Shown piece after piece: positions 4,451 to 35,487 of a DNA stretch of 64,000 bases. This DNA comes from a phage, in sequence record PV467749.1; one strand, written 5' to 3'. The translations under genes were made by a program, and so were the position numbers. The notes under the pieces are model-generated. The model was not told where the DNA came from, did no database searches, and was given only the letters and a program-made list of their open reading frames with translations. The stretch's first letter is position 1; each line of letters opens with the position of its first letter.

Positions 4451-4981
4451 TTAATCGAGTATAGTAACTTCAATCAAACGAATTTCGATGAATTCGTTTT
4501 CAGTTTCCCATGATGAACCTAATTTCTTATTAAGTTCAGTTTTAACATCACTTTTAAATTTTCCCATAGTATTAGGAATAATTTGTTTGGTTAGTTTGTC
4601 ATAACCACAATAAAACATAGGTTTCTCCCTTCGAGATATTAGCTCAACAAAATCCTTTGGATATGCAGGTATATTATGCATCACTTCATGAATGCACTCA
4701 GTACTTGAATCTTGTACTTTGTACATTACATTAAGTTTACCTTTGAAAGTTCTAATCATATCAACAATAATACCTTTACCAGATTTAAGTAAAGTTCCAT
4801 TCTTTGTATGAGAACAATAGAATACCTCATCACCAATATTAGGATAGTACAAATTAAATTCTAATTCTTCCTTTGATGACTGACGTTGAAATTTCATTAC
4901 ACGTTCAGTATAGGTGGGGTAGTTCTTCATGTTCAAAAGAATATCTCTCTTAGTAAGTGTGATATAACTGGCATAGTCCAT
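4451..4981 (-). CDS. hypothetical protein (176 aa; start uncertain, alternative ATG at 4930)
   Basis: ORF track; overlaps methyltransferase 3' end by 49 nt unless the internal ATG at 4930 (MKNYPTY...) is used. Confidence 0.4.
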   Translation of the reverse strand: MDYASYITLTKRDILLNMKNYPTYTERVMKFQRQSSKEELEFNLYYPNIGDEVFYCSHTKNGTLLKSGKGIIVDMIRTFKGKLNVMYKVQDSSTECIHEVMHNIPAYPKDFVELISRREKPMFYCGYDKLTKQIIPNTMGKFKSDVKTELNKKLGSSWETENEFIEIRLIEVTILD

Positions 4982-6822
4982 CCATTCCCAAGCATTTTGT
5001 ATGCTTGTGTCTTACTAGACACTTTAAAGAAATCTACAGGAATACCCTGTAATTTACAACATTCTACTACACTTAAGTGTCTATAGTCAATATTTCTTTT
5101 ACCATTCTCCAATAGATATTGACGATTAATCGTTGGGTCACGAAACACCAACTGTCGTCTTGATTTATTAAAGTACTGGTTACAATCACCACCCTTAAAA
5201 TAGTTAGCATCTATACAGTACGAAGCGGTTCTGTCAGTGTACCAACCATCTTCAATGATATCTTGAAGTTTAGGGGCATTTGATAATGCAGGTGGTATAA
5301 AAAGCTTATCAGTACTGCACCAGTAGTATCTCTGCCTGAAGTGAGGCGTATAATGCTGGGAATTTATCAGTACTGGTGTCATCTCAAGAACACTATTAAT
5401 GTATTGCTTGAAATCTTCTTTCATCTTAACATTCTCAAAGAGAACTTTCAAGTTAGGATTTAAACTTTTTATGTGTTGGTAGATATCAACCATCGTGTGA
5501 AACAACATTCCACGTGGGTCATTTATACCACCCTGTTTACCAGCAACTGACCATGCTTGACAATTGTGAACAACTATATTATTTGCAGTGTACGTGTTAT
5601 CAACAGCAACTTCAAAATTATATACAGTTTTCCATTCTCCAGTATGAGTGCTAGTTTTTACACCTTTAACCCACGAATAATTTTTGTCATAAAAAGCTTC
5701 CTCTTTTTTCGGTTGGTCTTTTTTATATGACAAAACATAATAAGGTTTTTGGTTAACAACTCGATTTTCAATAACTTTGGTATTCTCTGGTTGAGTATAG
5801 CTTATATTGGAATGCCTTCCATATACGTTCATTATCAATTGTTGAATACCCAATACACAGTTTATTGATGTTGTAGTGAATTTATAACATCCACTATCAA
5901 TATGTCCATCAGCGTCAAAGTAACCATCAAGAAATGCTTTTTGGTTTTTTATGCATTCCGTGAATAGTTCTGGGTGTACTTGTTTGTTAGAAGCACCCTT
6001 TCCCATTTGTTCACAAAATTCAACCAGATCTTTTGAACATATATAAAATTTATATGAAGTTCTTTCTTTAACATAATTATATTTCATATTCATACCATCA
6101 AAACATGAAACTAATTCATTAAATTCGTCATGTGCACAACAGATGAAAACTCTATATTGGTAACTATTGGTTCTATTGTTACGTTTTACTTTATATGTCC
6201 ATCCATCACCCATAAAGCGACCCATAAAATACCAGAATTTTTCATCTTTCGTTGATTTGTTAGATTCAACTGATTTAACATTACACAGAAAATGGTCATA
6301 TGTCAAATCATGTGCCTCTACCCATTCTGGTTCAGAAAAATGACGTTCATATTGTCTAATGTTGTTATTCCACATAGACGTCATTTTTCTTGAATAAAAG
6401 GGATGATTATCGGTACATTCAATTGGAAGGTGACCTTGACCTGTAATAATACGAGTGGGAGCATTTTTAACACCAGTACTCAAAACTGGATGATATTTAC
6501 CAGTATGTGTCAGTACCATGTCACCAACTTGAATGTCTTTTATATCTTTATGACCTTTGTCTGTCATAATCATGGTTCCTGCTGGGAAGCATGGAAATCC
6601 ACCCATTAATAAATCTATTTTATCCCACTCAATATCCCATTCTCTCCATTTAGTTACATCACCCAATTGGGTGATATCAGGAAAGTTAGCTTGAGATTCA
6701 GCTATTGCGTACTTGTCAATTTCGGATGAATAATATTTTTCAACAGGGATACCAGCATCTTTTAATGCCATGTATCCAACACTCATCCCATTAAAAAGAG
6801 ATAGTACTCTGATAGGTTTCAT
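4933..6822 (-). CDS. DNA (cytosine-5)-methyltransferase precursor containing an intein (629 aa precursor; about 285 aa mature)
   Basis: Motif I FNGMSVG, motif IV GGFP|C..CQAWSVAGKQGG...DPRG interrupted after GGFP, motif VI LFENVK, motif X QAYKMLGNGW; AAAGGA SD before ATG. Confidence 0.85.
   Translation of the reverse strand: MKPIRVLSLFNGMSVGYMALKDAGIPVEKYYSSEIDKYAIAESQANFPDITQLGDVTKWREWDIEWDKIDLLMGGFPCFPAGTMIMTDKGHKDIKDIQVGDMVLTHTGKYHPVLSTGVKNAPTRIITGQGHLPIECTDNHPFYSRKMTSMWNNNIRQYERHFSEPEWVEAHDLTYDHFLCNVKSVESNKSTKDEKFWYFMGRFMGDGWTYKVKRNNRTNSYQYRVFICCAHDEFNELVSCFDGMNMKYNYVKERTSYKFYICSKDLVEFCEQMGKGASNKQVHPELFTECIKNQKAFLDGYFDADGHIDSGCYKFTTTSINCVLGIQQLIMNVYGRHSNISYTQPENTKVIENRVVNQKPYYVLSYKKDQPKKEEAFYDKNYSWVKGVKTSTHTGEWKTVYNFEVAVDNTYTANNIVVHNCQAWSVAGKQGGINDPRGMLFHTMVDIYQHIKSLNPNLKVLFENVKMKEDFKQYINSVLEMTPVLINSQHYTPHFRQRYYWCSTDKLFIPPALSNAPKLQDIIEDGWYTDRTASYCIDANYFKGGDCNQYFNKSRRQLVFRDPTINRQYLLENGKRNIDYRHLSVVECCKLQGIPVDFFKVSSKTQAYKMLGNGWTMPVISHLLREIFF
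5563..6591 (-). mobile_element. intein (343 aa) with LAGLIDADG homing-endonuclease domain, inserted at catalytic Cys of the C5-methyltransferase
   Basis: Starts CFPAGTMIMTD (block A), LTHT (block B), two LAGLIDADG-type motifs (FMGRFMGDGW, FLDGYFDADGHI), ends NNIVVHN followed by extein Cys of the PCQ motif. Confidence 0.8.
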
Positions 6823-11748: not shown

Positions 11749-12167
11749 ACTGGATAAGCCTTCATAAATTGTTTTAGAACTCCAAACTTAGAAGCACTGT
11801 AATCATACTGATAACTTAGCTCACGTTTATCATTCATTCGATAAACCATATGATTGTTTGGATAACCTATTCTAACAGGTTTGTTAGGATTTGCAAGCAA
11901 AATTGCCCATTCTTTTACAGGAAAAACGTTTTCAGATAACATCTTCACATCTTTACTGTAATACTTCATTGCTTGGGTACAGTGCTTGTAATCTTCAGCA
12001 CTCAGTTCTTCACACACAACACTGTGTGTTTCAGTACTGGATACCCATGACTCTTCTTCATAATATAAGTCAATTACATCTTCTACGGTATAGCTATCAG
12101 GTAAATCATAATATACCCAATTACTAAAACCAGAGCTTACACCAACTCGAATTCGATAGTACTTCAT
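11745..12167 (-). CDS. hypothetical protein (140 aa)
   Basis: ORF track. Confidence 0.45.
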   Translation of the reverse strand: MKYYRIRVGVSSGFSNWVYYDLPDSYTVEDVIDLYYEEESWVSSTETHSVVCEELSAEDYKHCTQAMKYYSKDVKMLSENVFPVKEWAILLANPNKPVRIGYPNNHMVYRMNDKRELSYQYDYSASKFGVLKQFMKAYPV

Positions 12168-12331
12168 ATTTTTTTATCATCCGATTTTACATAATAGTAA
12201 CATACAATGCAGTGAATTACAAGAAGAATAATTTCTACTACATTCAGTGCCACAACATGCCCTTGCGGGACCGTAAGTGACAATAACAACATTATAGTAG
12301 GTATTACGAATATTGTCAATGTTTTTTTCAT
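12164..12331 (-). CDS. small membrane protein (about 55 aa)
   Basis: ORF track 12164..12370; ATG at 12331 has AAGGAAATAAA SD, upstream in-frame extension lies in a duplicated segment without SD; hydrophobic MKKTLTIFVIPTIMLLLSLTV. Confidence 0.4.
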   Translation of the reverse strand: MKKTLTIFVIPTIMLLLSLTVPQGHVVALNVVEIILLVIHCIVCYYYVKSDDKKI

Positions 12332-12417
12332 TTTATTTCCTTGTGGGACCGTAAGTGACAATAACAACATTATAGTAGGTATTACGAATATTGTCCATGT
12401 TTTTTCATTTTATTTCC
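12261..12417. repeat. tandem direct repeat, 2 copies of about 78 bp, near-identical
   Basis: 12261..12338 and 12339..12417 align with about 3 differences (C/T, A/C, one T in a T-run); each copy carries AAGGAAATAAAATG. Confidence 0.7.
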
Positions 12418-12641
12418 TTAATGTAGGCAAATGGTAAAAATACAACCTCTACCCCAGGAAATGCAGTTGCGAGTGCATCAACTATAGATTTGTTTTTATT
12501 ACATTGCCATACTTTTGTAACTTTGTGCTGGAATACCTTGCCATCTTTTACTAACCAATACATTTGCATTTTAACAGTACTGTTATCAGATGGTATTAGT
12601 AAATCTTCCATATCATATGAATTAAAGATTCTCTCGTTCAT
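12405..12641 (-). CDS. hypothetical protein (78 aa)
   Basis: ORF track; C-terminus and stop lie in repeat copy 2. Confidence 0.45.
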   Translation of the reverse strand: MNERIFNSYDMEDLLIPSDNSTVKMQMYWLVKDGKVFQHKVTKVWQCNKNKSIVDALATAFPGVEVVFLPFAYIKEIK

Positions 12642-12900
12642 ATAATCTCCTAGTGAAAAAAGCCAGATTCTTTCTTATATATTCGGCGACACAATCAGTA
12701 GTTTGTGTATTTGTGAATGCAACAACTTCATTCGATACACCATTCCCATTACACAATGGACAAATCCCCATATACTTAGGTGTTGGAACTGTATCTAGTT
12801 TATATTTCCCTGAAGATATCATGTATTGTTGTGGTAATACATCCAAAGAAATAATATAATCTTCATCGAATTGCTTACAACATACCCAACATTTACTCAT
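12622..12900 (-). CDS. small Cys-rich protein (92 aa)
   Basis: ORF track; CWVCC and CPLC motifs. Confidence 0.45.
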   Translation of the reverse strand: MSKCWVCCKQFDEDYIISLDVLPQQYMISSGKYKLDTVPTPKYMGICPLCNGNGVSNEVVAFTNTQTTDCVAEYIRKNLAFFTRRLYERENL

Positions 12901-13384
12901 TGTGGTTCTCCTTCAAAACAATTCTTATATCTTCGAATGTTTTAACAAACCAGTCATGTTCATCAGATACATCAACCACCTTCCCACCATAAACATAGTA
13001 ATGGTAGAAGGGTAACTTACTTTTCCTCAATCGTTCAGCAAGTTCTGGGTTTTGAAATATCTTAGCACATATTGCATCCTGGATACGAGAAATGCATTCG
13101 GGTGTCATTTCAATACGGTCGTGCATATACTTGTTCGCCGCTGCTTTTGCAGCAGCACCCGACACTTTTCTAAGATCATCATGTTTCTGGCCTGTTAAAA
13201 ACCAAAAATAAAAAGTTTCTACCGATGGGAACCAACCGTATGGTTCTAAGGTAAAACTATGTGACGAAAAGTTAGATAGATCCCTACCTAACTTAGTTTT
13301 AGCTTTACTATAGATATTAATGTGTCTGTATCCGTCATCAGTAGGGTCAATATAGTTAAATGACTCTTCAGGAAATTCAAACAT
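12893..13384 (-). CDS. NADAR (YbiA/DUF1768)-like protein
   Basis: By-eye match to E. coli YbiA as recalled from memory: INIYS...LSNFS...PYGWFPSVETFYFW and AKIFQNPELAERL versus INFYS...FSNFA...WPTSEHYFQAQKF and AKFEQHAELRALL. Confidence 0.6.
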   Translation of the reverse strand: MFEFPEESFNYIDPTDDGYRHINIYSKAKTKLGRDLSNFSSHSFTLEPYGWFPSVETFYFWFLTGQKHDDLRKVSGAAAKAAANKYMHDRIEMTPECISRIQDAICAKIFQNPELAERLRKSKLPFYHYYVYGGKVVDVSDEHDWFVKTFEDIRIVLKENHNE

Positions 13385-13386
13385 AA

Positions 13387-13740
13387 TTACTCTTCTTCAC
13401 CAGATGGTGTACCACGCAGTTTATCAAAATCAACCCAAATACCATGCTGGTTTTTGAAGCGACATTTCTCATAGTACCAGCTATAGTCGGTTTCAACACC
13501 CTGAGAAATTGAACGAACACTACAGTCATACATATTGTATAAATGTGTACGTACAATGAATGTTCCTATAAGAAGAACAAACACAACAATCCCAGTACAG
13601 ATCTTTGGATGATCCATAATTAGGTCCAACACAGAACTGGTTTCAGTACTATCAATTTTACTACGACCGATAGCAACAACTTTCAGTACTGCTAATGATA
13701 CCAGTAATGAAATAACAAGAACACTCAAATAAATTAGCAT
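13387..13740 (-). CDS. membrane protein (117 aa, two predicted TM segments)
   Basis: ORF track; hydrophobic LIYLSVLVISLLVSLAVLKVVAI and GIVVFVLLIGTFIV. Confidence 0.45.
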   Translation of the reverse strand: MLIYLSVLVISLLVSLAVLKVVAIGRSKIDSTETSSVLDLIMDHPKICTGIVVFVLLIGTFIVRTHLYNMYDCSVRSISQGVETDYSWYYEKCRFKNQHGIWVDFDKLRGTPSGEEE

Positions 13741-32244: not shown

Positions 32245-34411
<2,167 letters not shown>

Positions 34412-34424
34412 AGGTTATATACTG

Positions 34425-35487
<1,063 letters not shown>

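Follow-up and report, generated by a model that had tools for sequence, protein, structure and literature searches.

AdfN, the product of T4 gene 30.3 (gp30.3), removes ADP-ribose (ADPr) from DNA and defeats the DarTG1 system; substitution of E36 or K43 by alanine inactivates it (PMC11257639). It is through the action of AdfN on DarTG1 that NADAR proteins have lately been recognised as an enzymatic class of counter-defence. All four NADAR families so far described hydrolyse guanine-linked ADPr (G-ADPr) in vitro (PMC12945103). Three residues are highly conserved across NADARs, namely the serine of the LSNF motif, a glutamate and the lysine found seven positions after it, denoted here as Glu+7 (PMC12945103). 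The glutamate has its role at the distal ribose (PMC11543638, PMC11257639). The lysine, corresponding to K50 in the P. nicotianae (Pn) NADAR of PDB entry 8BAU, K95 in the E. coli C7 NADAR and K43 in AdfN, binds the diphosphate, and its mutation abolishes both hydrolysis and toxin rescue (PMC11543638, PMC11257639). Roles have been described also for the lysine of a GxxAK motif (PMC11543638, PMC12945103). NADAR families are told apart by the charged residue hosted by the last strand, which is Glu in YbiA/NADAR, Asp in the DarT-associated DarG1 and His in phage gp30.3 (PMC11543638, PMC11125620). The gene described here, located at positions 12893-13384 of a 64,000-nucleotide (nt) stretch of phage DNA (record PV467749.1; "the window" denotes this whole stretch), encodes a NADAR-fold protein assigned to a large phage-centred clade which lacks the Glu+7 lysine.

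Gene, fold and clade

A single open reading frame (ORF) fills the interval exactly on the minus strand (ATG 13384-13382, TAA 12895-12893, 163 codons). Its translation holds HINIYSK..., DLSNFS, PYGWFPSVETFYFW and AKIFQNPELAERL, and thus all the strings from which a first-pass annotation, made by eye from the sequence, had proposed a NADAR (YbiA-like) enzyme. The stop codon of the upstream gene is separated by 2 nt from the start of the ORF, whose stop in turn overlaps the next ATG by 8 nt; the gene is thus tightly packed in a co-directional block, part of a long co-directional array of small, closely spaced genes. Homologs were detected by tblastn in 503 phage records, which comprise phages of Salmonella, Vibrio, Escherichia, Klebsiella, Erwinia, Serratia, Pseudomonas and Ralstonia, chiefly jumbo phages and Ackermannviridae. 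The surrounding 5 kb match 36 Asteriusvirus-like genomes, 34 of which at a coverage of at least 80%, and are 99.4-99.7% identical to seven records of Asteriusvirus-like jumbo coliphages, including fEgEco12 (375 kb), Ecwhy_1 and BF17, and 98.6% identical to CMSTMSU. The ORF is confirmed as a genuine conserved gene; described at first sight as accessory, it is conserved throughout the genus and not variable. The only direct PHROG matches are families 652 (E 3e-45) and 11222 (E 2e-31), both of unknown function. Existing labels were taken as leads only: the identical gene is called "NADAR domain-containing protein" in the Turkey3 GenBank record, and a distant Kuttervirus homolog "putative N-glycosidase". 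The gene is not among the virion proteins in the annotation of WPEC3, and the fEgEco12 genome paper makes no mention of it.

The relationship to NADARs is visible only by profiles and structure, since direct searches are empty. The ORF matches no Pfam model, NADAR PF08719 and Phage_30_3 PF08010 included, even at E<=10, and no NCBIfam model, NADAR included; the single sequence retrieves nothing meaningful from the PDB, and a precomputed NADAR domain is found in none of 29 homologs from a large protein collection. A profile built from 27 family members, in turn, retrieves from the PDB by hmmsearch, as its top two matches, the P. nicotianae NADAR 8BAU (E 1.9e-4) and E. coli YbiA 2B3W (E 5.4e-4), both over positions 20-118. 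In hhalign comparisons the same profile aligns with a small canonical NADAR alignment (8BAU, YbiA and the PF08719 domain of protein P0244, described below) with 96.3% probability (E 1.3e-9, 121 columns), and with an alignment of the gp30.3/AdfN family built for comparison with 97.2% probability (E 3.5e-11, 140 columns), nearly end to end. The latter pairs LSNF with LSNF, E56 with E36, GxxAK with GxxAK, H128 with the invariant H123 and R154 with R149. PF08010 is touched by 8 of the 27 members, all below threshold, the best relative scoring 27 bits where the gathering cut-off is 36, and PF08719 by two (best E 0.024).

The AlphaFold2 model obtained from the 27-member alignment has a mean predicted local distance difference test score (pLDDT) of 90.1 and a predicted template modelling score of 0.83. 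Its topology (beta1, a beta2-beta3 hairpin, five helices and a beta4-beta5 hairpin) yields an alpha-helical core set between two small beta-sheets, which matches solved NADARs. The protein consists of this core only, with residues 1-8 disordered, the first strand at 21-23 and the last two at 126-132 and 135-138. In a search of predicted viral structures clade members rank first, followed by NADAR-annotated proteins of giant viruses and phages. Homology to, and the fold of, the NADAR superfamily are therefore established. The resemblance first noted by eye is real, as INIYS, LSNF and SVE of the ORF pair with INFYS, FSNF and TSE of YbiA in the profile match to 2B3W, and the proposal of a NADAR-domain protein holds for fold and homology, not for a direct match to PF08719 or NCBIfam.

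The epithet YbiA-like is to be dropped. The near-constancy of H128 (173 of 175 sequences) places the clade on the histidine, phage side of the superfamily, and by sequence the ORF belongs to a large phage-centred clade, sister to T4 gp30.3/AdfN. Because the protein fails the PF08719 and PF08010 thresholds, misses one residue conserved superfamily-wide and has no DarG1 hallmarks, its clade is filed as a distinct, Lys-less, histidine-type NADAR lineage, nearest to gp30.3/AdfN and outside the four described families. When 1.84 billion cluster representatives (50% identity) were searched exhaustively with the profile, 2,100 matched at E<=1e-3, 1,660 of them at E<=1e-10 and 683 at E<=1e-30; among the best 150, lengths of 200-1,415 amino acids are common. 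The clade has very probably been noticed earlier at the superfamily level, within the "NADAR" of comparative surveys; the text available of two such surveys (PMC7824862, PMC9503650) describes neither the missing lysine nor the motifs of the clade.

Active-site residues

Residues were counted in 175 sequences, drawn from the 27-member alignment and the best 150 representatives of the exhaustive search. The clade-specific N-terminal motif is nearly fixed: N23 is found in all sequences, G18 in 174, D17 and H21 in 170 each, S26 in 169 and Y25 in 168, and position 27 is Lys or Arg in 155. The gp30.3 family shows no conservation of D17, H21 and N23, and the Y25-S26 pair aligns with Y20-S21 of YbiA. 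The LSNF of the ORF corresponds to LSNF in 8BAU and gp30.3 and to FSNF in YbiA; the S37 column hosts Ser in 156 sequences, Thr in the remaining 19. K80 is the equivalent of Pn K75, E. coli C7 K115 and SCO5665 K117, and the region around it pairs with AKKLGR of 8BAU and GxxAK of gp30.3. In the C-terminal hairpin, H128 corresponds to E125 of 8BAU and to H123, which is invariant in gp30.3.

The picture differs at Glu+7, occupied in the ORF by L63. This column holds Lys in 25 of 27 gp30.3 sequences, versus Lys or Arg in none of the 27 members used for the clade profile. In the larger set basic residues are found in 16 of 175, and the column is variable, with no set substitute (Ser 43, Leu 39, Gly 36, Lys 15, Ala 14, and others); an alternative alignment places a gap there. 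When the ADPr contacts seen in the 8BAU co-crystal are mapped by profile alignment, E43, K75 and E125 correspond to E56, K80 and H128 and are kept, and R79, Y84, W89 and R93 are changed to N84, D89, M93 and C97, respectively. The R79-equivalent column, Asn in the ORF, holds Arg or Lys in 127 of 175 clade members. By these alignments, residues next to the distal ribose and the scissile bond have been retained, and those holding the adenosine diphosphate have been lost, at least in the Asteriusvirus subclade. Residues D17, H21, N23, Y25, Y129 and Y130 should plausibly face the pocket of H128, as beta1 should pair with the C-terminal hairpin in a three-stranded sheet. The many strictly conserved polar residues argue for catalysis over mere binding.

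Function and alternative explanations

The protein is read as a putative ribosyl N-glycohydrolase of the ADP-ribose type, acting most probably on a nucleobase adduct and serving in counter-defence, with a specificity unlike that of AdfN and DarG1; a probability of about 0.5 is assigned to this reading. The enzyme would hydrolyse the ribosyl N-glycosidic bond of an ADP-ribose-type adduct, and the most probable substrate would be ADPr carried by a DNA or RNA nucleobase, because the four characterised NADAR families act on such adducts in vitro and the nearest relative does so in vivo. To the phage it would serve to undo, or pre-empt, an attack by the host dependent on NAD+. Since the diphosphate-binding lysine is lost clade-wide, and the equivalents of R79, Y84, W89 and R93 in the ORF, the substrate handle is probably recognised differently, and for this reason the specificity is expected to diverge from that of AdfN and DarG1, which act on ADPr at guanine N2. 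Of the role proposed at first, counter-defence stands as the most likely one, judging from sequence, and a specific anti-DarT role is plausible; a guanine-ADPr substrate cannot be assumed, given the residues lost. Likewise, the catalytic residues that had been expected are kept as to S37, E56, K80 and H128, not as to the Glu+7 lysine.

Several observations weigh against the reading as a glycohydrolase. The Glu+7 lysine, essential in the C7 NADAR (K95A) and in AdfN (K43A), is absent from the ORF. In a covariation test for a residue compensating its loss, based on the 16 members with Lys or Arg at Glu+7, no single basic residue emerged: K135 is Lys or Arg in 62% versus 82% of sequences. Some Lys or Arg is nevertheless found within positions 62-68 in 139 of 175 members, at loose positions, K67 being the nearest basic residue in the ORF, and R72 and K80 are fixed in the clade. 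The lining of the active site by clade-specific residues is inferred from topology, not from distances. Neither the Pfam models NADAR and Phage_30_3 nor NCBIfam recognise the protein. Finally, with ORFans as neighbours and no ADPr-related family among those listed for the window, the local context adds nothing.

Relatives with additional domains are more informative. Pfam scans of 90 long clade members revealed fusions to DUF4326 (27 members), YAcAr SLOG (21), DprA-like SLOG (11), Macro (6) and DUF488-N3a (6), and, in one member each, to canonical NADAR, YpsA SLOG, Metallophos and an Rv2179c-like exoribonuclease. The clade domain may follow Macro and DUF4326 (P0177), lie between DUF4326 and YAcAr (P0161), precede YAcAr and DUF4326 (P0234) or follow Metallophos (P0232). 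In the 1,415-amino acid P0244 a Lys-less clade domain (547-698) is joined to DUF4326 (1185-1274) and to a canonical NADAR domain (residues 10-143, PF08719 at E 1e-20); the presence of both NADAR types in one chain argues that they are not redundant and do different jobs. The frequent fusions to Macro, SLOG, DUF4326, DUF488 and NADAR tie the clade to ADPr/NAD biology. The same partners have been described for viral NAD+/ADPr-processing systems and jumbo phages, for which the processing of ADPr derivatives is predicted (PMC7824862, PMC9503650), and the "NADAR" of these surveys very probably includes the clade of the ORF.

In eight sampled neighbourhoods, stand-alone members are mostly flanked by ORFans. 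One homolog is found 1.8 kb downstream of a DUF4326 protein gene, another two genes from a CTP_transf_like gene (a Pfam family including nicotinamide mononucleotide adenylyltransferases), and a third near a DNA ligase and an Rv2179c-like exonuclease; the last setting recalls that of T4 gene 30.3, which adjoins the ligase gene 30 and lies about 3 kb from alt.

A bolder reading, less likely than the one preferred here, is that the clade is a fifth, phage-centred NADAR lineage with a rebuilt active site, in which the lysine and, in the ORF, the adenine and pyrophosphate contacts have been dropped, an invariant D-x3-H-x-N...HYY set has been gained, and a substrate handled by no characterised NADAR is processed, whereby a defence other than DarTG1 would be countered. 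Candidate substrates would be a non-guanine base adduct, for instance thymine-ADPr of the DarT2 type or adenine-ADPr of the CmdT type, or else a ribosyl N-glycoside in soluble form, for instance an immune signal derived from a nucleotide.

Less probably, the protein is an orphan antitoxin similar to AdfN, which strips ADPr from guanines of the phage DNA and thereby neutralises the DarT1 toxin of DarTG1. DarTG systems do occur in E. coli strains, and the nearest characterised relative is AdfN/gp30.3, the 97.2% match by hhalign, with a last strand likewise of the histidine type. AdfN, NADAR-Bas32 and NADAR-Bas60, representing three NADAR branches, all counter DarTG1 (PMC11257639), and every NADAR family tested hydrolyses G-ADPr (PMC12945103). 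Yet AdfN K43A and C7 K95A lose function, and the clade is without that lysine; the R79, Y84, W89 and R93 equivalents are missing from the ORF; the union of a canonical NADAR and a clade domain in P0244 argues for non-redundancy; and frequent fusions to SLOG, Macro and DUF4326 are unreported for AdfN or DarG1.

The same fusions, along with those to the phosphatase-like DUF4326/DUF488 domain and to Metallophos, are what chiefly recommends a soluble substrate in place of a nucleic-acid adduct, an explanation held to be about as unlikely as the preceding one. The protein would act on a cyclic-ADPR-type signal, on ADPr-1''-phosphate or on some other ribosyl N-glycoside, within a network of the SLOG/Macro/DUF4326 type. 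Such a role is predicted for phage NADAR, SLOG, Macro and DUF4326 by surveys of the Aravind laboratory (PMC9503650, PMC7824862); the loss of ADP-gripping residues around a preserved ribose centre fits a different handle; and YbiA, as cited in PMC11125620, acts on ribosyl-phosphate N-glycosides that are riboflavin intermediates. However, cleavage of a soluble immune signal is not known for any NADAR so far, all biochemical tests carried out to date showing hydrolysis of ADPr from nucleic-acid bases, and no SLOG, Macro or DUF4326 partner is among the 25 Pfam families listed for the window.

It is improbable that the protein reverses or tunes ADP-ribosylation performed by a transferase of the phage (as T4 Alt/Mod) and not of the host. 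On a metagenomic T4-like contig (locus L010, 6001-7678) the 144-amino acid clade member P0019 does lie 65 nt from a convergent gene for a 392-amino acid ADP-ribosyltransferase (ART; PF03496 ADPrib_exo_Tox), T4 gene 30.3 is found near alt, and early co-expression of NADARs with ARTs in T4-like phages is noted in PMC9503650; still, this adjacency was seen in one of the eight neighbourhoods, and no ART is among the 25 Pfam families listed for the 64-kb window of a genome of about 360 kb. The weakest explanation, that the loss of the essential lysine marks a loss of activity and leaves a dead binder, sponge, decoy or structural protein, can invoke the mention in the AdfN paper of a phage NADAR protein independent of enzymatic activity (PMC11257639), but is very hard to reconcile with E56, H128, H21, N23, D17, K80 and Y129/Y130 being near-absolute in 175 diverse members, multidomain enzymes included, as is the pattern of an active site, with a lysine column that varies freely and has no specific replacement, and with the lack of a virion-protein annotation in WPEC3.

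A NADAR in a jumbo phage will be no surprise to specialists. The four biochemically covered families share a Ser-Glu-Lys core, and a large, unmodelled clade without the "essential" lysine, which escapes Pfam and NCBIfam and is widespread among large myoviruses, including jumbo phages and Ackermannviridae, is a lead on both mechanism and counter-defence. If the clade is active, NADAR chemistry can do without that lysine, and the superfamily would probably act on a wider range of substrates; should it target another ADPr-based defence, it would provide a ready-made probe for it. Hundreds of phage genes now called "hypothetical protein" could be annotated as NADAR-fold, gp30.3-related.

The locus and its comparison with known systems

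Features of the NADAR-like gene and of its surroundings are collected in Table 1.

Table 1. Coordinates of the NADAR-like gene, its sequence motifs and nearby elements in the window
Feature	Position	Strand	Remarks
NADAR-like coding sequence	12893..13384	-	163 amino acids, 19.2 kDa, isoelectric point about 6.0; stand-alone NADAR-fold domain; Lys-less histidine-type phage clade, PHROG 652
H128-Y129-Y130, C-terminal beta-hairpin	12995..13003	-	H128 173/175, Y129 171, Y130 171
G76-x-x-A79-K80, GxxAK motif	13145..13159	-	G76 175/175, K80 174/175
L63, position of the essential diphosphate-binding Lys (Glu+7)	13196..13198	-	Lys absent
E56, equivalent of the distal-ribose glutamate (Pn E43, E. coli C7 E88, AdfN E36)	13217..13219	-	175/175
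L36-S37-N38-F39, NADAR LSNF motif with the superfamily serine	13268..13279	-	invariant in the 27-member alignment
D17-G18-x2-H21-I-N23-x-Y25-S26-K27, clade-specific N-terminal motif	13304..13336	-	strand beta1 and the loop before it
117-amino acid protein gene	13387-13740	-	directly upstream of the NADAR-like gene
Shine-Dalgarno-like purine-rich GAAGAAGAG	13390..13398	-	6-14 nt 5' of the ATG, within the 3' end of the upstream gene; consensus resemblance only
Terminator-like hairpin	14937-14917	-	9-bp stem, T-rich tail; between the LemA-like gene and the six-gene block with the NADAR-like gene
Perfect TTGACA-17-TATAAT promoter-like site	17362-17334	-	intergenic gap 5' of the Rv2179c-like exonuclease gene

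The NADAR-like gene is placed between a replication and nucleotide-metabolism module (ribonucleotide reductase, dihydrofolate reductase, gyrase, DnaB-like helicase, RecA-like protein, RNase H, clamp loader) and a block of ORFans. Its neighbours within 10 kb on either side are ORFans, TelA, an Rv2179c-like exonuclease and a methylase. ART, Macro, SLOG, DUF4326 and Nudix are all missing among the 25 Pfam families listed of the 45 matching the window, and a second NADAR-type ORF was not found in the window. The ORF gave no match in PADLOC, where T4 AdfN, used as positive control, was likewise negative.

The protein encoded directly upstream features two long hydrophobic helices, as expected of a membrane protein, and an almost invariant C-terminal module of about 50 residues with two conserved cysteines (LYNMYDCSVRS...YSWYYEKCRFKN..GIWVDFDKLRGTPS). 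In a distant relative (L012) the gene is still found directly upstream, the two proteins being there 27% (117-amino acid protein) and 50% (NADAR-like protein) identical to their counterparts. A "WWE domain" label carried by this gene in phage ph0011 and in UniRef, which would offer a possible link to ADPr binding, is unsupported: Pfam gives no WWE match, the model (pLDDT 82.6) consists of two long helices and a three-stranded mini-sheet, and Foldseek retrieves no PDB match at E<=1e-3.

Sigma70-like sites number 50, close to a shuffled expectation of 40.8 +/- 7.2, and the scan found no convincing promoter directly 5' of the 14898->12405 block. The promoter-like site and the hairpin of Table 1 suggest a transcription unit (17362->14917) ending just before the block of the NADAR-like gene. 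At 12261-12419 a 78-bp tandem duplication is found (2.1 copies, 96% identical). Each copy has a minus-strand promoter of the sigma70 type, near-perfect at 12397-12369 (TGGACA-17-TATAAT) and perfect at 12319-12291 (TTGACA-17-TATAAT), and the duplication gives rise to an odd repeat-containing ORF (12164-12370). Alignments to Turkey3, WPEC3 and vB_Ec-M-J are 77 nt shorter (4924 versus 5001 nt), which indicates a single copy of the repeat in these phages.

Two genes located elsewhere in the window deserve mention. The minus-strand gene at 4933-6822 encodes a 629-amino acid C5 cytosine DNA methyltransferase split by an intein that bears a LAGLIDADG homing-endonuclease domain (PF00145 split; Hint_2 77-134; Intein_splicing; LAGLIDADG_3 294-356); the close relative Turkey3 and a metagenomic locus (L009) host a 286-amino acid intein-less allele, and the intein is therefore polymorphic in this phage group. 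At 34984-35487, also on the minus strand, a 167-amino acid full-length homolog of the bacterial translation initiation factor IF3 is encoded (IF3_N E 4e-16, IF3_C E 3.5e-12), next to a KTSC-domain protein gene (33805-34350).

Among known systems, the closest to the ORF is T4 gp30.3/AdfN (PF08010). Both are small, stand-alone phage proteins made of the NADAR core only, and share LSNF, the glutamate (E56/E36), GxxAK, the last-strand histidine (H128/H123) and a C-terminal arginine (R154/R149); among Pfam models, PF08010 is also the one that clade members touch most frequently (8/27). Unlike AdfN, the ORF does not match PF08010 and has no equivalent of K43, and the clade adds the invariant DG..H.N.YS and HYY motifs, lacking in gp30.3. 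The ORF and its relatives are found in jumbo phages, Ackermannviridae and phages of Vibrio, Erwinia and Ralstonia rather than in T-even phages.

The distance is larger from canonical NADAR/YbiA proteins (PF08719; 2B3W, 8BAU). The ORF does not match PF08719, a histidine replaces the last-strand glutamate, the Glu+7 lysine is missing and the ADP contacts R79, Y84, W89 and R93 of 8BAU are not conserved; the D..WG motif of canonical NADARs is not clearly present, and W145 may match W133, in a region where the alignment is ambiguous. With respect to the DarG1 antitoxin (8BAT), the ORF lacks the N-terminal DNA-binding beta-beta-alpha extension and the lysine, and has His for Asp; the linkage of DarG1 to DarT1 has no counterpart here, as neither DarT nor ART is adjacent to the ORF or among the 25 Pfam families listed. 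The multidomain relatives of the ORF resemble the viral SLOG-Macro-NADAR-DUF4326 assemblies, which feature identical partners (PMC7824862, PMC9503650), whereas the phage analysed here has it as a stand-alone domain, and the Pfam families listed for the window include none of these partners.

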